Of a DNA stretch of 64,000 nt, positions 837 through 62,238 are shown piece after piece (the first letter of the stretch is position 1; each line of letters begins with the position of its first letter). The translations under genes and the position numbers were made by a program. The notes beneath the pieces are model-generated. The model had not been told where the DNA came from, made no database searches, and saw nothing but the letters and a program-made list of their open reading frames with translations. Source of the DNA: Candidatus Saccharimonadota bacterium (GTDB lineage Bacteria > Patescibacteriota > Saccharimonadia > Saccharimonadales > UBA10212); the NCBI GenBank assembly GCA_013815775.1, contig JACDFN010000001.1, forward strand, positions 109,883 through 173,882, given 5' to 3'.

Positions 837-2615
837 ACTCAGGAGCAAATTCGCAATTTTTGCATAATTGCCCATATTGACCACGGTAAGTCGACGCTTG
901 CTGACAGATTGCTTGAATTGACGGGCACGGTTGAAAAACGACAAATGAAAGCCCAAATATTAGACCGGATGGACTTGGAGCAAGAGAGAGGCATCACTAT
1001 CAAACTTGCGCCAGTTAGGATGGCTTACAAAGGCTACGAACTGAACCTGATTGATACACCCGGGCACGTAGACTTTAGCTATGAGGTAAGTCGATCACTA
1101 GAAGCTGTAGAGGGCGCAATACTTGTAGTTGATGCCACCCAGGGTGTACAGGCACAGACGCTGGCTAACGTTTACTTGGCACTTGCAGCGAACCTGAAAA
1201 TCATCCCTGTGCTTAATAAGATTGATCTGCCAGCAGCCGATGTTGAACGAGTAGGTAAAGAAGTAACTAGCTTGTTGGGCGGTAAGCCGGAAGATATTTT
1301 ACACGTTAGTGCAAAAACTGGAGCGGGCGTGGAGGAGATACTTAAATCTATGATCGAAGATGTACCTCCGCCGGAAGGCAGCGCAATGGCTGCCAGTCGG
1401 GCACTGATCTTCGACAGTTACTACGATGACTACAGGGGAGTAATTCTATATGTTCGAGTGGTTGACGGGGGTATTTCGAATGGTAACTCCATAAAGATGC
1501 TAGCCACTAATGCCACCGGTGTGGCGCTTGAAGTAGGTGCTCTTCGACCTGATATGACACCTTTGCACAAGCTGGATGCGGGTGAAATTGGCTATATAGT
1601 CACTAACTTAAAGAGCACGAGGGAAGCCAAAGTTGGTGACACAGTTACCTTGAGCGATAACCCGGCAATTCAGCAATTACCTGGCTACAAAGACGTTAGA
1701 CCATTTGTATACGCTGGTTTTTTTCCCGATAGTAACGAAAACTACCAGACTCTAAAAGACGCTATCGAAAAACTAGCTCTAAGTGATTCTGCTTTGCAAT
1801 ATGTTCCAGAAAATTCAATGGTACTAGGTTTTGGGTTAAGGCTCGGGTTTCTAGGTCTGCTTCATATGGATATAGTTCGCGAGAGACTAGAGCGGGAGTA
1901 TGGTTTAGAGCTAATTATTACTAACCCTTCCACCGATTACCTAGTTACTCTGACGTCTGGCCAAGAAATTTCTATTCGCTCAGCAGCGGAGCTCCCAGAC
2001 GCTGGCCAAGTGGCTCAAATTAAGGAGCCGTGGATTAAGGGCGAGATAGTTTGCCCCATTTTATATGTAGGCTCAGTTTTAAACTTAATCGTAAGTTCAC
2101 GAGGCCTCCAGAAACATATCAGCTACGTTGATGCACAATTGGCAGTTATAGATTTCGAAGCACCTCTTGCCAATCTTTTAACCGACTTTTATGATCAACT
2201 TAAAAGCGCCACAAGTGGCTACGGCTCTTTCAATTATGAACTGCAAGATTACCGCGCCGAAGATTTAGTGCGACTTGACTTCTACATAGCCACAGACAAA
2301 GTCGATGCTCTATCAGTAATGGTGCATAGAATCGAATCCGAAAAAGTAGCCAGAAGCACTGTCAAAAAACTTAAAGACGTTATCCCTAGGCAGCAGTTCA
2401 AGGTTAGCTTACAGGCAGCTATAGGTGGAAAATTTATTTCTCGCGAAGACATTAGTGCGTTTCGTAAAGATGTTACAACCGAGCTTTACGGCGGAGACGT
2501 GTCACGAAAGAAAAAGGTCTTAGCTAAACAAAAAAAAGGCAAGGAGCGAATGAAACGCTTTGGAAAAGTAGATATCCCAGCGGAGGCTTTCGCTGTCATG
2601 TTGCGTAGGGACTAA
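834..2615 (+). CDS. lepA: Translation elongation factor 4 (LepA)
   Basis: 593 aa; GTPase motifs AHIDHGKST, DTPGH, NKID; full-length LepA-type C-terminal region. Confidence 0.95.
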   Translation: MTQEQIRNFCIIAHIDHGKSTLADRLLELTGTVEKRQMKAQILDRMDLEQERGITIKLAPVRMAYKGYELNLIDTPGHVDFSYEVSRSLEAVEGAILVVDATQGVQAQTLANVYLALAANLKIIPVLNKIDLPAADVERVGKEVTSLLGGKPEDILHVSAKTGAGVEEILKSMIEDVPPPEGSAMAASRALIFDSYYDDYRGVILYVRVVDGGISNGNSIKMLATNATGVALEVGALRPDMTPLHKLDAGEIGYIVTNLKSTREAKVGDTVTLSDNPAIQQLPGYKDVRPFVYAGFFPDSNENYQTLKDAIEKLALSDSALQYVPENSMVLGFGLRLGFLGLLHMDIVRERLEREYGLELIITNPSTDYLVTLTSGQEISIRSAAELPDAGQVAQIKEPWIKGEIVCPILYVGSVLNLIVSSRGLQKHISYVDAQLAVIDFEAPLANLLTDFYDQLKSATSGYGSFNYELQDYRAEDLVRLDFYIATDKVDALSVMVHRIESEKVARSTVKKLKDVIPRQQFKVSLQAAIGGKFISREDISAFRKDVTTELYGGDVSRKKKVLAKQKKGKERMKRFGKVDIPAEAFAVMLRRD

Positions 2616-2645
2616 AAAATCTCAGCAGACTGCTAAACTATTAGC

Positions 2646-3359
2646 ATGGGAAAATTGGGTCAACAGGAGGACTTAGTATTATACGAGCCACCCCAAAGCA
2701 TCTTGGAGGCGCTTCCCAAGGTCCGGTTACGTGCCCTTGTCGGCCCGAGCGGAAGCGGCAAGAGTACCATAATAGATATTTTGCAAAAAAAGTGGCCCAC
2801 TAAGTATGCACAGGTAGTGGGTGATACTACCCGTCGCCCACGTAAGGGGGAAGTAGATGGTGCTACTTACAACTTCCGGGCTGAGGAAGAGATGATACAT
2901 GACTTACATGCCAGACGGTTCCTACAGGTCGTGCCAGGTTCGATGGGTAATTTCTACGCTACTCGCCCAGAGCAGTATCCTGCTAACAAGTTTGCGATTA
3001 TGGCTATACAGGCACGAGTAATGGAAAAATTCCAGAAGCTGAGATTTAAAGATATCAAATGGTTGCTGATAGTACCCTGTAGCGATAAAGACTGGCTGCG
3101 TTGGCAAGAATCCAATGCTCAAAGTGTGCAAGACAGAAAAGAGCGTGAAGCAGAAGCTATAGACTCTTATGCTCGTTCTCTTAGTAACCCTAATACTTAC
3201 TACATTCTCAACGATACGCCCGAAAACGCGGCCAGAAGAATAGTACAGGTTGATAGTAACCGTAGGCCCGACAATGAAATTTTGGCAAAACAAACGGCCA
3301 TCTGTAATCTAGAAGCGCTTAAGGCTCGGCTTGCACTAACGCATCGGGATAATGAATAA
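2646..3359 (+). CDS. Guanylate kinase-like P-loop kinase
   Basis: Walker A GPSGSGKST and GMP-binding block TTRRPRKGEVDGATYNF; N- and C-terminal extensions relative to a typical ~200-aa Gmk. Confidence 0.6.
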   Translation: MGKLGQQEDLVLYEPPQSILEALPKVRLRALVGPSGSGKSTIIDILQKKWPTKYAQVVGDTTRRPRKGEVDGATYNFRAEEEMIHDLHARRFLQVVPGSMGNFYATRPEQYPANKFAIMAIQARVMEKFQKLRFKDIKWLLIVPCSDKDWLRWQESNAQSVQDRKEREAEAIDSYARSLSNPNTYYILNDTPENAARRIVQVDSNRRPDNEILAKQTAICNLEALKARLALTHRDNE

Positions 3360-4107
3360 TAGGTCAATGCAAACAAACGGGCTTCAACGCTATAAGGAAT
3401 TTAAATTTGCGTTAGCAAGCTACAGGATATCCGAACGTGCTAAAAGTGAAATTACTGACTTACGGTTAGTACTATTAATTGCTCCAACATCGGGGGGTCG
3501 CAATACCATAATCCGTCGTTTACTTACCGATGGCGGATATCACTACATTGTCTCTGACACTACCCGCAAACCGCGAATTAACGATGGAATTCTTGAACAA
3601 AATGGCAGAGAGTATTGGTTTAGGACAGAGGAAGAAATGCTAGCAGATCTTCAAACCGGTGAATATCTGGAGGCTGAGCTTATACACGGCCAGCAAGTGT
3701 CAGGCATCAGTATTCGTGAGTTAAAAAAAGCAAAGAAGCAAAACAAAATTGGAATTACCGATATTGACCTTGACGGTGTCCATAACGTTATAAAAGTTAA
3801 ACCCGATACTATTATAATCATGATTTTGCCGCCAAGTTTTGATGAATGGCAGAGAAGGATAGCTCGAAGGGGGCATATGAGCGGGCAGGAGTATATAAGA
3901 AGACTTCAAACAGCCGACAAGATATTCTCTGACGGCATTAAGAACAACTTTTACCACTTCCTTATATCGGAAAATGTAGAACAATCAGCTTCAATTATCA
4001 ATTCAATAGTCGAGGGTGGGCGTAATCCCCACCAAGATCGAGGCCGCTCTTTACTGAGCCAACTTCAAAGTCATTTACAAGAAAAACTCCTTGAACCCAG
4101 TAAATAA
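3352..4107 (+). CDS. Guanylate kinase-like paralog with degenerate Walker A
   Basis: SDTTRKPRINDG..GREYWF and ITDIDLDG blocks of the Gmk fold; P-loop reads APTSGGRNT (no Lys); ATG 3352 overlaps upstream stop (ATGAATAA). Confidence 0.5.
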   Translation: MNNRSMQTNGLQRYKEFKFALASYRISERAKSEITDLRLVLLIAPTSGGRNTIIRRLLTDGGYHYIVSDTTRKPRINDGILEQNGREYWFRTEEEMLADLQTGEYLEAELIHGQQVSGISIRELKKAKKQNKIGITDIDLDGVHNVIKVKPDTIIIMILPPSFDEWQRRIARRGHMSGQEYIRRLQTADKIFSDGIKNNFYHFLISENVEQSASIINSIVEGGRNPHQDRGRSLLSQLQSHLQEKLLEPSK

Positions 4108-4108
4108 T

Positions 4109-4135
4109 TTGGCACTCTTGACACAGGAGTGCTAA
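4109..4135. promoter_or_regulatory. CIRCE operator (HrcA binding site)
   Basis: TTGGCACTC-N9-GAGTGCTAA versus consensus TTAGCACTC-N9-GAGTGCTAA (one mismatch), directly upstream of hrcA. Confidence 0.85.
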
Positions 4136-4147
4136 AAACTCTAAAAT
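4118..4147 (+). promoter_or_regulatory. hrcA operon promoter embedded in CIRCE
   Basis: -35 TTGACA 4118-4123 lies in the CIRCE spacer; -10 TAAAAT 4142-4147 (18-nt spacer). Confidence 0.55.
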
Positions 4148-4155
4148 AGTAGCAA

Positions 4156-4182
4156 CTAGCAGTAAGCTAGAGCGAGTGCTAA
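4156..4182. promoter_or_regulatory. Second, degenerate CIRCE-like inverted repeat abutting the hrcA ATG
   Basis: CTAGCAGTA-N9-GAGTGCTAA; right arm perfect, left arm 6/9; ends 1 nt before ATG 4183. Confidence 0.45.
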
Positions 4183-4893
4183 ATGACCGATAGACAATCT
4201 AAAATTCTTCAAGCTATCGTAGAGCAATATGCAGAGGTAGCAAGTCCAGTTGGCAGTAGTTTACTAGCCAAGGTTTTTGATGTTTCAAGTGCAACCGTAA
4301 GGGCGGACATGGCAGAATTGGAGAAACTGGGTTTTATAACTCAACCACATACAAGTGCTGGCCGAATACCAACCGATGCAGGTTATCGACACTATGTTAA
4401 CCAATTGGCGGGAGCTAGTTTAATAGAACCCTTAAACGAGCGTCGGGCACAACGAGCGCTTTCGGCTCGCGTGAGCGGTGGCGGACTTCCCGAAAATACC
4501 ATTCGTAACACTGTCGATACTCTAGTCGAACTAACCCACAATTTAGGTATGGCAACCATAGGCGATCAGCTTTATATGAGCGGGTTGTCCAACCTTTTTG
4601 GGCAGCCAGACTTTATGAGAGCCAATCAGGTTCGTGAAGTAGCCAGGCTTTTAGATAACTTACAACCTTGGTTGCATGAAACTGCACCTAATGAACCACT
4701 CAGCGTTTATATCGGCCGGGAAAATCCCATAGGCCGAGGAGCAGGTTGCAGTCTTATTATCAGCCGTTTTCGTAGTCCCTTTTCCGATAGAAGCTACATA
4801 GGAGTGCTTGGCCCAACTAGGCAGAGCTACAGGAGCGTGATGGATTTAGTAGAACGTGCAGGGCGAACCTTGGAGGAGGCACTTTATGTCTAA
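4183..4893 (+). CDS. hrcA: Heat-inducible transcription repressor HrcA (short, 236 aa)
   Basis: N-terminal wHTH typical of HrcA (GSSLLAK..VSSATVRADMAELEKLGFI..PHTSAGRIPT); CIRCE upstream; hrcA-grpE-dnaK-dnaJ order. Confidence 0.85.
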   Translation: MTDRQSKILQAIVEQYAEVASPVGSSLLAKVFDVSSATVRADMAELEKLGFITQPHTSAGRIPTDAGYRHYVNQLAGASLIEPLNERRAQRALSARVSGGGLPENTIRNTVDTLVELTHNLGMATIGDQLYMSGLSNLFGQPDFMRANQVREVARLLDNLQPWLHETAPNEPLSVYIGRENPIGRGAGCSLIISRFRSPFSDRSYIGVLGPTRQSYRSVMDLVERAGRTLEEALYV

Positions 4894-5359
4894 AAGCCCT
4901 AAAAAACTATCTGTCGCCCAACTCGAGAAGCAGGTTTCAGAGCTTACCGATGCCCTACAACGCGAACGTGCTGATGCCATTAATGTTAGACGTCGCGCCG
5001 AGCAGGAACGCGAAAAGCTAGCTGATTTTTATAAAGCAATGATAGTTCAGAAACTACTTCCGGCGATTGATAATCTCGAGCGGGCACTAAAACACGCTCC
5101 TAAGGATCTAGCAAAACATGAATACGTTAAGGGTGTTCAAAGCGTGGCCGAGCAATTTGAAAAAGTATTCGCCGATATTGGAGTTAAAAGGGTCAAGTCA
5201 GTAGGTGAGGAGTTTGATCCGCGTTATCATGAAGCAATAAGCATAGAAGACGATGGTGGCGAGCTCGAACTCGTTTCCGAAGAACTCGCACCCGGCTATA
5301 GAATTGAGGATGAAGTAATCCGTCACGCTATGGTTAGAGTAAAAAAGGACAAAAAATGA
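4886..5359 (+). CDS. grpE: Nucleotide exchange factor GrpE
   Basis: GrpE coiled-coil plus C-terminal block (FDPRYHEAIS..GYRIEDEVIRHAMV); ATG 4886 preceded by GGAGGAGG and overlapping hrcA stop (ATGTCTAA). Tracked start 4856 is less likely. Confidence 0.9.
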   Translation: MSKSPKKLSVAQLEKQVSELTDALQRERADAINVRRRAEQEREKLADFYKAMIVQKLLPAIDNLERALKHAPKDLAKHEYVKGVQSVAEQFEKVFADIGVKRVKSVGEEFDPRYHEAISIEDDGGELELVSEELAPGYRIEDEVIRHAMVRVKKDKK

Positions 5360-11402: not shown

Positions 11403-11420
11403 TGCTAAAATTAGCTAATG
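11403..11420 (+). promoter_or_regulatory. Extended -10 box (TGcTAAAAT) 6 nt upstream of ATG 11418; candidate leaderless promoter
   Basis: TGCTAAAAT-tagcta-ATG; no SD. Confidence 0.4.
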
Positions 11421-11894
11421 ACTGACTTTATTCTCGGAGTTCTAATACTTGCTCCACTAGCACTTACCTTTTTTTTAAAGAGCAATGCCGGGCTTGGTTT
11501 TATGGCTCTTTGCACGGGGTTTGTGCTGAGCACTTCTGTTGTTGGGGATTTAAAACAACTACTTAACCAGATGGATTTGACTGTTACGGAGTCTAGTCTT
11601 GCAATAACTATTATCGTCTTGCCCTTTCTTCTAACATTGCTTCTAGTGCGCAGCTCATCTAAAAAGGGTATTTTTTTCATTCTACAACTAACCGCCGCCA
11701 TTTGCGCCGGGGGTCTACTGGCTCTTTCAATAAGCCCGCTAATTCCAGCATCATTAGAGTTTAATTTAAAATCTTCTAGTGTCTGGGACGTGCTCCAAGG
11801 TGCCCAAGCCGCTGTAATAGGGCTTGGTGCTCTATTTAGCTTCCTGGTGATTTGGCTGGGCGGATTCCAGCATAATCGCAAAAAAAAGCACTAA
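11418..11894 (+). CDS. Hypothetical integral membrane protein (158 aa)
   Basis: Four to five hydrophobic segments; antisense ORF 11411-11881 is considered spurious. Confidence 0.5.
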   Translation: MTDFILGVLILAPLALTFFLKSNAGLGFMALCTGFVLSTSVVGDLKQLLNQMDLTVTESSLAITIIVLPFLLTLLLVRSSSKKGIFFILQLTAAICAGGLLALSISPLIPASLEFNLKSSSVWDVLQGAQAAVIGLGALFSFLVIWLGGFQHNRKKKH

Positions 11895-11955
11895 TAATTA
11901 ATTAATATTTAAACACTTAGATGCTGCGTATAGCGGATTTAGTATTAATAAGCAT

Positions 11956-12016
11956 GGGCTTGGAAGAGCAGTGCCGGTTCGACAAAGTCGAGTCCCGATT
12001 AATTCGGGAAAGCACC
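11956..12016 (+). ncRNA. Orphan copy of the three-way-junction RNA element (not followed by a tRNA)
   Basis: GGAAGAGCAG box, P1 GTGC 11971-74/GCAC 12012-15, P2 TTCGAC-AAA-GTCGAG, P3 CCCGA-TTAAT-TCGGG. Same architecture as the elements at 52210 and 26941. Possible promoter TTAGAT-17-TAGTAT at 11917-11945. Confidence 0.4.
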
Positions 12017-12056
12017 ATAAGATACCCTGGAAGAGTGTCTCATAATGCGTGGCCGT

Positions 12057-12740
12057 TTATCGGCTCTGCATAGCATCTAGCAGAACGGCCATTACCATCC
12101 AGGCTCGCTCATCAAGAACATCTATCGCCCCTTCGTCTAAGTGAAGGGCGTAATGATCCCGAATGGTTGTAATCTTTGTGTACTCTCCTACAATCTTATC
12201 GCCGGACTTTACAGAAAAATGGAATTTAAGAGGGAAGGGCATAATCTCAGAGATAAAAGGAATAAATTCCCAGGCTCTCCTGGCGATTGCTATAGCAGGG
12301 CTTTTCTCGCTGATTGTAAACACAGTAGCTTTCATTTGTTTATCGTAGATAGTCCACGAACTTACCAGCAATGACTTTTTAAACTCCTTTTTTAATACTG
12401 CCAGTGGTTTCTGGTTATCATCAAATACATCAAAAGTCGGGCTAAGGTCCATTATTGAGCGAGCTTTAGATGCCACGAGAACTTGAGTCTGGGTTTCATC
12501 TCTAAAAATAGTGAACTGCTCTCGAAGAGCCAATCTTTTTTGCTTAGCGTAGCCGCAAACTTTTTGTTCTAAATCCTCATCCTTTAAAATCACATATTCA
12601 TTAGCGAGCATGGTGATTTTTTGGTGTACTTCAAATAGCTTCGTCATGTCCTCTAGTGTAACACCGCCAAAAAAGCGCCAAGTGTTATTTTCGCTTTTGT
12701 TTTCTGGGTTTGTCTGGTCGAATAAAGCGGTGATATCCAA
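12057..12740 (-). CDS. Hypothetical protein, possibly scramblase/LURP-one-like (tubby-like) fold
   Basis: 227-aa ORF. Family resemblance rests on weak pattern recognition only. Start may be internal (M32, 12647) because 12740 overlaps the upstream gene by 56 nt. Confidence 0.35.
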   Translation of the reverse strand: MDITALFDQTNPENKSENNTWRFFGGVTLEDMTKLFEVHQKITMLANEYVILKDEDLEQKVCGYAKQKRLALREQFTIFRDETQTQVLVASKARSIMDLSPTFDVFDDNQKPLAVLKKEFKKSLLVSSWTIYDKQMKATVFTISEKSPAIAIARRAWEFIPFISEIMPFPLKFHFSVKSGDKIVGEYTKITTIRDHYALHLDEGAIDVLDERAWMVMAVLLDAMQSR

Positions 12741-15339: not shown

Positions 15340-15606
15340 TCGTCAAAGCGAACGCTTCTACGCTTCGCTTTGGTAATTTTACCAAAGCTTAGCCTTAAGC
15401 TACGCTTTTCCTCTCAGTTTTCCAAGCAGTCGAGTCGGCAAAGCCGCTCCTTGGCTTGAAAAACTGGTTTAGAAAAATTAACCGGTAAGCGCAAAAATCT
15501 GGATGTCCTAGCAATGAAATTAACTTCTTAGATTATGCTTATTTAAAGGGAAAAGTCAACCGCTAGCAATTAATCTTTTGACAACTTTATGCCATGATAA
15601 TTTCAA

Positions 15607-26859: not shown

Positions 26860-26934
26860 TGGTAGCGGGGACAGGACTCGAACCTGCGACCTCGTGGTTA
26901 TGAGCCACGCGAGCTGCCACTGCTCCACCCCGCG
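26860..26934 (-). tRNA. Initiator tRNA-fMet (anticodon CAT), CCA encoded
   Basis: 5' CGCGGGGTGGAGCAG as in bacterial initiators; position 1:72 unpaired (C1 x U72); anticodon arm CGTGG-CTCATAA-CCACG. Confidence 0.85.
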
Positions 26935-26940
26935 ACAAAC

Positions 26941-27041
26941 TTTGAAGGACAACCAAGGTTTTCCTTCAACGCCGCTTCTGGAATGAATCCAGATTCGCCT
27001 AGCGGCGAACCGCGACTGCTACCTTTCCTTATAGCGATAGC
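26941..27041 (-). ncRNA. Three-way-junction RNA element forming the 5' leader of tRNA-fMet
   Basis: Read on the minus strand: GCTATC..GGTAGC hairpin, AGCAG, P1 GTCGC/GCGGC, P2 TTCGCC-GCTA-GGCGAA, P3 CTGGA-TTCAT-TCCAG, P4 TTGAAGGA..TCCTTCAA ending 7 nt before the tRNA. Confidence 0.5.
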
Positions 27042-52209: not shown

Positions 52210-52317
52210 CTGTTGCAGTTCTTTTTTAGGGAAAGGTAGCAGCCGCGGTCCGCCATAGGCGGATTCGGATTCATTCCGAAAGCGGCGTTGAAGGAAACCC
52301 GCATGGTTGTCCTTCAA
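52210..52317 (+). ncRNA. Three-way-junction RNA element forming the 5' leader of tRNA-Pro(UGG)
   Basis: P0 CTGTTGC/GTAGCAG; P1 GCCGC 52242-46/GCGGC 52282-86; P2 TCCGCC-ATA-GGCGGA 52249-63; P3 TCGGA-TTCAT-TCCGA 52265-79; P4 TTGAAGGA 52288-95/TCCTTCAA 52310-17. Confidence 0.5.
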
Positions 52318-52324
52318 GGTAGTT

Positions 52325-52401
52325 CGGGGTGTAGCGCAGTTGGCTAGCGCACCGCGTTTGGGACGCGGGGGTCGAAGGTTCGAGTCCTTTCACCCCGACC
52401 A
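52325..52401 (+). tRNA. tRNA-Pro (anticodon TGG), CCA encoded
   Basis: Acceptor CGGGGTG/CACCCCG; anticodon arm CCGCG-TTTGGGA-CGCGG. Confidence 0.92.
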
Positions 52402-56796: not shown

Positions 56797-56871
56797 GTAC
56801 CCCAGGAGGGATTCGAACCTCCGGCCTTGACGTTAGAACCGTCTTGCTCTATCCACTGAGCTACATCCGCC
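56797..56871 (-). pseudogene. Chimeric tRNA-like gene: tRNA-His 5' end fused to a decayed tRNA-Arg(TCT)-like body
   Basis: 5' GGCGGATGTAGCTCAGT identical to tRNA-His; anticodon loop GTTCTAA; T arm and 3' acceptor (GGTTCGAATCCCTCCTGGGGTACC) resemble the genuine tRNA-Arg at 61791; 5' GCGGATG cannot pair with 3' CTGGGGT; no CCA. Confidence 0.6.
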
Positions 56872-61943: not shown

Positions 61944-62004
61944 ATAACAGGGGTGATTATAACAGATATATATTCAAAGTCTAAAGCCACTAAATAAAAA
62001 GCCA

Positions 62005-62040
62005 AAACAAAACGCACCAGTTACCTGGTGCGTTTTAGCT
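62005..62040. terminator. Bidirectional rho-independent terminator
   Basis: AAAA-CGCACCAG-ttac-CTGGTGCG-TTTT; on the minus strand followed by TTTTGTTTTGGCTTTTT. Confidence 0.65.
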
Positions 62041-62064
62041 TTTACTAAAATTTAAGGCTTAAAA

Positions 62065-62238
62065 TTAAGCGCTAAAAATTCTAGCTGCTACAGTTCGAGC
62101 TAAAGTGATAACTGTAATAGCTACCCCTAAAGTCAAAATAGCTAGCGTTATTGCTATAGATAGCTTGCTACCGCCAGTGCTAGGCAGTACAGCAACTGAA
62201 CCAGCTGCTATTGAAGTACCGAGTACGGATCCATACAT
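62065..62238 (-). CDS. 57-aa ORF consisting essentially of an LPSTG cell-wall sorting signal
   Basis: Hand-translated MYGSVLGTSIAAGSVAVLPSTGGSKLSIAITLAILTLGVAITVITLARTVAARIFSA; RBS AAAGGAG 7 nt upstream; own terminator; below the ORF-track cutoff. Confidence 0.5.
   Translation of the reverse strand: MYGSVLGTSIAAGSVAVLPSTGGSKLSIAITLAILTLGVAITVITLARTVAARIFSA

Follow-up and report, generated by a model that had tools for sequence, protein, structure and literature searches.

We analyzed a 64,000-nucleotide (nt) stretch of contig JACDFN010000001.1 from a Candidatus Saccharimonadota bacterium (the window), in which a small element lies on the plus strand between two convergent genes, at positions 11961 to 12043. 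By its sequence and predicted fold, this element is a complete free-standing paralogue of a structured RNA module that appears to be undescribed. Two other clear copies in the window are leaders of tRNA genes; behind the third, neither ARAGORN nor the Rfam model RF00005 found a tRNA or tRNA-like gene, and we call this copy the orphan. A sequence-only reading of this DNA had already described it as a diverged copy between convergent genes, with no tRNA behind it, and had proposed that its three-way junction is the conserved unit and may be expressed alone. The observation is partly confirmed, at a level well above chance, and the interpretation was half right.

The orphan almost certainly belongs to the same structured RNA family as the tRNA-linked copies, given the sequence comparisons that follow. 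We wrote the layout of the junction as the pattern AGCAG-N4-GG-...-T-NNNNN-TTNAT-NNNNN-AA, which matches the window at three sites (0.05 are expected by chance). At all three, the three-way junction is the minimum-energy structure (z about -3), and the layout noted earlier is indeed that of the tRNA-linked copies. When we scanned GTDB species genomes with the pattern, we obtained at least 116 loci, and 18 of them passed a filter for pairing in the hairpins P2 and P3. Among the matches listed, all 18 come from metagenome-assembled genomes (MAGs) of Saccharibacteria or Saccharimonadales, and the module occurs in the sampled genomes only in this group; the remaining listed matches, and all matches in viral contigs, look like chance. 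(Loci outside the window are given as L plus a number, with the strand added for L120, which has two copies.) The copies also share features that the pattern does not contain: a purine tail, GGGAA(AA)G, before AGCAG, and a hairpin P4 after helix P1 (CG-AUGAGAAA...GUCUCAU).

The pairing is conserved across these copies. In a MAFFT alignment of 17 copies, 92% of the cells are paired and 16 pairs have double changes, which none of 500 shuffles reached. In a model-based alignment of the 22 copies from outside the window, 96.6% of the cells are paired and 22 of the 27 pairs have double changes; again, none of 500 shuffles equaled this, and control columns slid out of register gave 32 to 49% pairing. 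Because P1 and P4 lie outside the selection filter, their covariation is independent evidence. These alignments show a real family, whose predicted sense-strand RNA structure is under purifying selection.

We then scored the window with the covariance model R2, which was built from the 22 foreign copies and contains no window sequence. R2 matches the orphan over its full length with 58.2 bits and an E value of 3.7e-14, which is rough, as are all our E values, because the model calibration was shortened. Model R1 gave 57.7 bits. The antisense strand of the orphan has a partial match of 12.6 bits, the best score in the window beyond the three copies is 13.8 bits, and chance loci that fit the sequence pattern reach at most 28 bits under R1. 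The orphan is clearly distinguishable from these controls, as expected for a diverged homologue of the two tRNA-linked copies that has kept their helices.

The module is about 85 nt long. A purine tail that ends in AGCAG leads into a three-way junction of P1 to P3, and a single linker base then connects to P4, which has AUGAG/CUCAU at its base. Near-invariant across the 22 copies are AGCAG (columns 9 to 13: A22 G22 C21 A22 G22), the first pair of P1 (G-C), the linker G (21 of 22), and the base of P4 (about 21 of 22). In copies of the fMet type, the P4 base is swapped to UUGAAGG/CCUUCAA with compensation. P4 is present in every copy listed, including the orphan. The arms P2 and P3 are the least constrained part: the Lys-linked copies at L129 and L133 differ in junction bases and loops, and L120(-) has one hairpin in place of both arms. 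Judged from these alignments, the tail, P1, the linker, and P4 together form the conserved unit; the three-way junction as such, which had been proposed, does not. In three copies, the P4 loop has a structured insert of about 30 nt (CCAAGCCGGAGG...CCGCG...GGGUG; L014, 74-187, minus strand; L016, 3817-3931, plus strand; L105, 6170-6288, minus strand), which the covariance models truncate.

The variability of the arms also bears on whether the module might be a riboswitch aptamer of a new class or a self-cleaving ribozyme, which seems highly improbable. The junction is compact, with invariant nucleotides at the ends of helices; the module is multi-copy and intergenic, like many small ribozymes, and it matches no known family. 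However, the altered junctions and arms at L129 and L133, and their replacement in L120(-), argue against a ligand pocket in the junction. Furthermore, we saw no expression platform, terminator, or sequestered ribosome-binding site, and no Rfam ribozyme or riboswitch model matched with an E value of 10 or less. A hammerhead core was considered separately: CGAUGAG resembles CUGAUGA, but these bases covary as P4 pairs (the window copies have UUGAAGG/CCUUCAA), and with no Rfam ribozyme match we rejected this identity.

In the orphan itself, direct reading of positions 11962 to 12016 gives the sequence as first described: GGAAGAGCAG, P1 (GUGC/GCAC), GG, P2, U, P3, and AAA. AGCAG occupies 11967 to 11971, and its last G opens P1 through the pair G11971-C12015. 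In P1 to P3, 15 of 16 pairs form, and the junctions are GG, U, and AA(A). The earlier statement that no P4 hairpin follows was mistaken: the next hairpin aligns to the P4 of the family under both R1 and R2. Its 3' strand (UCUCAU) is intact, while the family's AUGAG reads AUAAG. That almost every pair had changed in a compensatory way was overstated, although such change is real. Relative to the fMet-linked copy, 11 of the 27 pairs are identical, 2 have changed on one side, 10 have changed on both sides, and 3 do not pair in the orphan; of the 16 pairs within P1 to P3, only 5 to 6 are double changes. Table 1 lists the parts of the orphan and the other features of the window.

Table 1. The orphan, its surroundings, and the tRNA-linked copies in the window
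Feature	Positions	Strand	Remarks
Whole orphan: tail, three-way junction, linker, P4	11961-12043	+	R2 58.2 bits, model positions 1-86
5' purine tail GGAAGAGCA	11962-11970	+	AGCA(G) part invariant in family
P1 5' strand GUGC(C)	11971-11975	+	Pairs with 12011-12015, (A)GCAC; innermost pair a C.A mismatch
Junction J1/2, GG	11976-11977	+	From sequence and R2 alignment
P2 hairpin UUCGAC-AAA-GUCGAG	11978-11992	+	First pair a U.G wobble
Junction J2/3, U	11993	+	From sequence and R2 alignment
P3 hairpin CCCGA-UUAAU-UCGGG	11994-12008	+	From fold and R2 alignment
J3/1 AA(A), then P1 3' strand GCAC	12009-12015	+	A where the family has G85
P1-P4 linker, C	12016	+	G in 21 of 22 other copies
P4 hairpin AUAAGA-U-ACCCU-GGA-AGAGU-G-UCUCAU	12017-12043	+	Third pair an A.C mismatch; A replaces family G94
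Intergenic spacer holding the orphan	11895-12056		Between two convergent genes
Gene for 158-aa membrane protein	11418-11894	+	Upstream, same strand; orthologues seen in L130-L133
LOR/YxjI gene, 196 aa, PF04525	12057-12647	-	Convergent; stop codon 13 nt past P4
Inverted repeat, left arm (21 nt, imperfect)	11918-11938		76% complementary to 12059-12079
Inverted repeat, right arm	12059-12079		Last codons of the LOR/YxjI gene (minus strand)
Proposed promoter TTAGAT-17-TAGTAT	11917-11945	+	From the sequence-only reading; weak, probably no promoter
fMet-linked copy	26942-27028	-	Leader of initiator tRNA-Met (tRNA 26860-26934); R2 82.8 bits
Pro-linked copy	52230-52317	+	Leader of tRNA-Pro(UGG) (tRNA 52325-52401); R2 79.8 bits

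Three changes in the orphan are uncompensated and fall at near-invariant G positions: G85A, the linker change G90C, and G94A. These raise the possibility, though not the likelihood, that the orphan is a decaying duplicate, which inserted by chance at a harmless site, has no function, and is now drifting. At the three positions, between 19 of 21 and 21 of 22 copies have the conserved G, and the orphan's score is the second lowest among the 25 copies listed. It also has no promoter and no downstream partner, and five relatives lack the element in the equivalent spacer. Nevertheless, 24 of its 27 pairs are kept at just 52% identity to the copies in its own genome and at 73% to the nearest listed relative, far above the pairing of slid columns. 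The orphan also retains AGCAG, GG, U, AA, and an unaltered CUCAU strand in P4, and RNA helices can tolerate A.C mismatches. On the sequence, the three changes may instead mark a weakened copy.

To see where the module occurs, we surveyed the contexts of at least 25 copies with E values below 1e-4. Of the 25 copies listed, 12 precede a tRNA gene on the same strand and end 3 to 10 nt ahead of the mature 5' end. Their partners are fMet (three copies), another tRNA with a CAU anticodon, Pro, Asn (two), Lys (three), His, and one truncated tRNA that we recognized from sequence. One copy lies in a 23S-5S spacer, 13 nt ahead of the 5S rRNA. Five are in the spacer between mraZ and rsmH, and behind them lie about 250 nt of conserved non-coding sequence without an Rfam match. 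Six, including the orphan, are free-standing, with the 3' end of a convergent gene within 6 to 41 nt. The copy at L014 is near the end of its locus, and no context was assigned to it. A place just ahead of a tRNA, 5S rRNA, or rsmH leader on the same strand is common in the family but does not define it.

The five free-standing copies besides the orphan (L016, L057, L058, L064, and L120(+)) have an intact consensus and score 76 to 101 bits with R2. The genes beside the free-standing copies are unrelated to each other (dnaE, atpC, groEL, mraZ, and LOR). Both kinds of homolog, tRNA-linked and free-standing, thus occur elsewhere. Among the linked copies, the linkage is conserved between orthologues for fMet (the window, L117, and L118), Lys (L090, L129, and L133), and Asn (L051 and L076). 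On the other hand, the module is present at tRNA-His in L113 and at the third CAU tRNA (tRNA-Met) in L117, whereas the window counterparts of both, like most tRNAs in the window, do not have it.

These contexts could be explained if the module is a leader that acts in cis on transcription or processing (by positioning RNase P, protecting the precursor, or antitermination) and the orphan is the relic of a lost tRNA. We think that this is unlikely. It would account for the 13 of 25 listed copies that end 3 to 13 nt before the mature 5' end of a tRNA or 5S rRNA, always on the same strand, for the promoter-proximal location of those copies, and for the conserved fMet, Lys, and Asn linkages. But orthologous tRNAs differ between genomes in whether they have the module, as described above for His and the third Met; most window tRNAs do without it; and six of the listed copies have no downstream RNA. 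Moreover, the spacer that holds the orphan has zero length in relatives, so a tRNA would have to be gained there and then cleanly lost. Because there are intact copies without a downstream RNA, and because the module is variably present at orthologous tRNAs, we believe that the function probably resides in the module itself and that the tRNA is not required.

The position of the orphan, 65 nt after the stop codon of the membrane-protein gene and 13 nt before the stop codon of the LOR gene, is typical of terminators, and the five other free-standing copies are placed alike. It is nonetheless quite unlikely that the orphan is a 3'-end structure, such as a terminator or a barrier to exonucleases, for one or both convergent genes. 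A terminator scan called no intrinsic terminator on either strand of 11895-12056; there is no T-run behind P3 or P4, nor a U-tract after any helix on either strand. The module also occurs in 5' leaders, where termination would be harmful, and in relatives the two genes need no spacer at all. We found no other processed RNA (5S rRNA or rsmH leader) on the same strand behind the orphan; the stop codon that follows, that of LOR, is on the opposite strand.

The tRNA-linked and free-standing copies differ in how often a promoter precedes them. A sigma-70-like promoter (at least 9 of 12 matching positions) precedes 9 of the 12 listed tRNA-linked copies and just 1 of the 6 free-standing ones. In the window, the promoter of the fMet-linked copy (TTGACA-17-TAAAAT) ends 27 nt upstream of the element, and that of the Pro-linked copy (TTGGTA-17-TATAAT) ends 25 nt upstream. 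For the orphan, the sequence-only reading had proposed a promoter about 10 nt upstream, at the same spacing as in the other copies. We could not support this: the candidates (TTAGAT or TAGATG, then 16 or 17 nt, then TAGTAT) match at 7 of 12 positions at best and at 2 to 3 of 6 in the -35 hexamer, and the promoter scanner did not call them. The candidate ends 16 nt before the orphan, versus 25 to 27 nt for the tRNA-linked copies in the window and 22 to 48 nt for clear tRNA-linked promoters overall. So, the module does exist without a tRNA, as the five further free-standing copies confirm, but the independent expression that had been suggested is not supported by promoters (1 of 6 free-standing copies).

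For the same reason, it is doubtful that the orphan is a small-RNA gene in its own right, driven by a promoter just upstream, with a three-way junction RNA that acts in trans. Intact free-standing copies do occur elsewhere (76 to 101 bits), and hexamers that resemble a -10 box (TAGTGT or TAGTAT) lie 4 to 16 nt upstream of the element in L057, L064, and the orphan. Furthermore, among the listed copies the orphan is nearest to L120(+) (73% identity) and then to L016 (65%, tied with the 5S-linked copy at L111), versus 52% for both other copies in the window. L120(+), L016, and the orphan share the P3 form YCCGA/UCGGR and the short tail GGAAGAGCAG. These identities hint at a separate free-standing subfamily. 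However, sites that resemble a sigma-70 promoter at 9 or more of 12 positions are missing ahead of 5 of the 6 listed free-standing copies, and the orphan reaches 7 of 12 at best. There is also no terminator behind the orphan, and the 8 nt upstream of L120(+) lead directly into the inverted copy.

To understand the origin of the orphan, we compared its locus with those of relatives. L128 came from a synteny search of metagenome contigs, and L130 to L133 were found as contigs that encode matching proteins. In L130 to L133, whose LOR proteins are 66 to 70% identical to that of the window, the LOR and membrane-protein genes abut or overlap (gaps of -4 to +5 nt), and the element is absent between them. 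In L128, a different gene takes the place of the orphan. The sole copy near LOR in L129 and L133 is the leader of tRNA-Lys, upstream of the LOR gene. Since the spacer in relatives has neither length nor the element, the orphan is apparently a lineage-specific gain of about 160 bp. The LOR protein in the window is 100% identical to a "Candidatus Saccharibacteria bacterium" protein at NCBI (locus tag H0X09_00620). The spacer of L128 (69% LOR identity) is occupied by a gene for a 176-amino-acid secreted protein (3767-4297, plus strand), and a large serine recombinase gene (984-2708, plus strand) upstream of LOR runs into a tRNA-like 3' fragment. The LOR locus appears to be prone to insertions.

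Could the module be a small mobile or dispersed repeat, similar to REP or MITE elements, that lands at harmless transcribed sites? It is multi-copy, the orphan was gained in one lineage, two copies at L120 form a back-to-back inverted pair, and free-standing copies prefer convergent spacers; in addition, the orphan is bracketed by an inverted repeat of 21 nt. All the same, we consider this very unlikely. Copies in the same genome are just 52% identical and their helices are compensated, and linkage to particular tRNAs is conserved between genomes. Homology to other copies ends at the ends of the element, without shared flanks; no target-site duplication was found at the orphan; and when we compared the flanks of other copies, the bracketing repeat was not a family feature. 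The duplex between the two flanks of the orphan has z = -2.15. The left arm resembles an inverted duplicate of the end of the LOR gene, and the repeat could be an insertion footprint or a closing stem. Separately, the 8-nt tail TGGAAGAG (11961-11968) recurs exactly at 12028-12035, toward the apex of P4; chance alone would produce about 0.5 repeats of this kind in the stretch.

Overall, we prefer the following explanation, to which we give a probability of about 55% as a whole. The positions of most copies show them to be promoter-proximal 5' leaders of putative precursor RNAs, ending a few bases before the processed 5' end. Either RNase P or the nuclease of 5S rRNA maturation would cleave such leaders off as a discrete RNA of about 85 to 100 nt. 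The module would be a self-contained RNA domain, likely a putative protein-binding handle, a stable by-product RNA, or otherwise trans-acting, with its activity centered on the core of AGCAG, P1, G, and AUGAG-CUCAU. The orphan would have arisen by a lineage-specific insertion into a convergent spacer that has no length in relatives. Because it has no convincing promoter or terminator, it is probably read through as part of the 3' untranslated region (UTR) of the membrane-protein gene. The weakest part of this explanation is the step in which the RNA is released and acts in trans.

Several points weigh against this explanation. The changes G85A, G90C, and G94A strike the best-conserved positions, so that the orphan may no longer be functional. 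Both the read-through transcription and the release of a small RNA are inferred from sequence. That the leader copies consistently end so close to mature tRNA 5' ends is also compatible with a role in processing in cis, and L120(+) has no upstream gene on the same strand as a source of read-through. Also, the copies were drawn with one pattern from at least 116 loci, which makes them a small and biased sample with biased proportions of contexts, and the invariance of GG, U, UUNAU, and AA is partly imposed by the search pattern. A bolder idea, which we hold only tentatively and consider rather unlikely, is that the module represents a new class of autonomous functional RNA, for instance a small RNA that processes itself or the RNA component of an abundant ribonucleoprotein. 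The gene-linked copies would then rely on stable-RNA genes for promoters and RNase P sites, and copies of the orphan type would be stand-alone or 3'-UTR-borne genes for the same RNA.

A few observations concern the wider set of loci. The non-coding stretches between mraZ and rsmH (L093, 5587-5865; L084, 5651-5950; L012, 3734-4040; L105, 5860-6169, minus strand; L120, 4880-5171, minus strand) contain the nearly invariant blocks GGUUAGCUAAUUGGCAGUCAGCC, AACACCUCCCAAAACUCCACCUCACAAAGUCUCUCA, ACAAAAACAAAAAC, and AAAAAGCUGRCUGCUGAUUAGGUGACCUUG, and GGCAGUCAGC is able to pair with GCUGACUGCU; the stretch may be a structured 5' UTR of rsmH. Upstream of these copies we considered a boxA, but CTTTAACAA fits a -35 hexamer better (TTAACA-16/17-TAnAAt). 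At L120, between mraZ and rsmH, the two inverted copies (5172-5245, minus strand, and 5253-5336, plus strand) are 7 nt apart.

In the window, the leader of tRNA-Lys(UUU) (15340-15420, minus strand) is strongly structured (z = -3.2), yet it scores only 12 to 16 bits. It is the positional counterpart of the Lys-linked copies at L090, L129, and L133 and may be a much-diverged or degenerate copy, in which case the window would hold more than three. A weak R1 match at 62009-62097 (minus strand) is not a copy: it is an intrinsic terminator (AAAACGCACCAGG-UAA-CUGGUGCGUUUUGUUUU) followed by the promoter of tRNA-Gly. This terminator-promoter region (61944-62090, minus strand) begins with UAGCAG though it holds no copy of the family. 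Positions 56798-56870 (minus strand) are a tRNA according to Rfam (36.7 bits, with a gathering score of 29) but not according to ARAGORN. In a Saccharibacteria MAG, L051 has a LOOT RNA (RF03000, 77 bits; 917-1032, minus strand) about 2 kb from its copy of the family.

No relevant family in Rfam 15 reaches its gathering score in the window, where only tRNAs do, or in 18 related loci; in the orphan region (11800-12200), nothing relevant matches at an E value of 10 or less, and the hammerhead, twister, pistol, hatchet, riboswitch, SRP, and 5S families are among those that stay below their thresholds there. Permissive Rfam scans of five copies gave sub-threshold matches only, and none of these recurred. 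We found no description of the module in the literature, and it is absent from a 2017 survey of 224 motifs in which TM7 was covered.

Other identities and additional helices were also rejected. The 16S 530-loop (AGCAGCCGCGGU, in the tRNA-Pro copy), 5S rRNA, and the GGAA-AGCAG of signal recognition particle RNA share letters with the module in P1, which covaries freely in other copies; the multi-copy nature of the element and the lack of an Rfam match also argue against mimicry of these RNAs. An additional helix (P0), in which the purine tail would pair with pyrimidines farther upstream, is strong in L012, L105, and L064 but inconsistent overall: the control fraction has a median of 0.26 and is 0.94 in the orphan. 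Similarly, a closing stem between the flanks is found only in the orphan and a few other copies and is not a family feature.

Saccharibacteria are ultra-small episymbionts with genomes of about 1 Mb. To our knowledge, they have very few known regulators, and their RNA biology is almost blank. For such a genome, three clear copies of a covarying module of about 85 nt in 64 kb are a sizeable investment. In the orphan and the other free-standing copies, the module is uncoupled from the partner that it usually has, which argues for a function within the module.

Among known systems, the ribosomal protein S4 leader of Fusobacteriales (RF03133) is similar in having a P1 around two hairpins, with very short junctions, followed by CGAnGA. 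However, the module is not upstream of rpsD, and of five copies only that of L051 matched (20.6 bits, E = 0.11, against a gathering score of 48.8); the four others, including the orphan, did not, so we rejected mimicry of this leader. Like the boxB/boxA/boxC antitermination leaders of rRNA operons, the module is promoter-proximal in stable-RNA transcripts, but it has no boxA and also occurs in 3' UTR positions and in a 23S-5S spacer. Like REP and BIME repeats, it is multi-copy, structured, and frequent between convergent genes. Unlike them, its copies are highly diverged yet compensated, their orientation to tRNAs is fixed and the linkage is conserved, and there is no conserved terminal motif, target-site duplication, or shared flank.

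Finally, small RNAs can be expressed by way of tRNA genes, as in Nanoarchaeum equitans and plants, with their dicistronic tRNA-C/D-box small RNAs, and in E. coli, with the 3'ETS-leuZ spacer RNA. These resemble the module in that a structured RNA is part of a tRNA transcript and would owe one of its ends to tRNA-processing nucleases, and in one case the genome is likewise very small. They differ in that the module is 5' of the tRNA, has no guide-RNA boxes, and is a single family that precedes many tRNAs, 5S rRNA, and an mRNA leader; its release and action in trans are here inferred. The comparison suggests a similar way of working, not membership in these groups. If the RNA is released and stable, it would give access to a new RNA-binding protein or activity in Saccharibacteria, and it would be a bacterial counterpart of the tRNA-linked expression of small RNAs in Nanoarchaeum.

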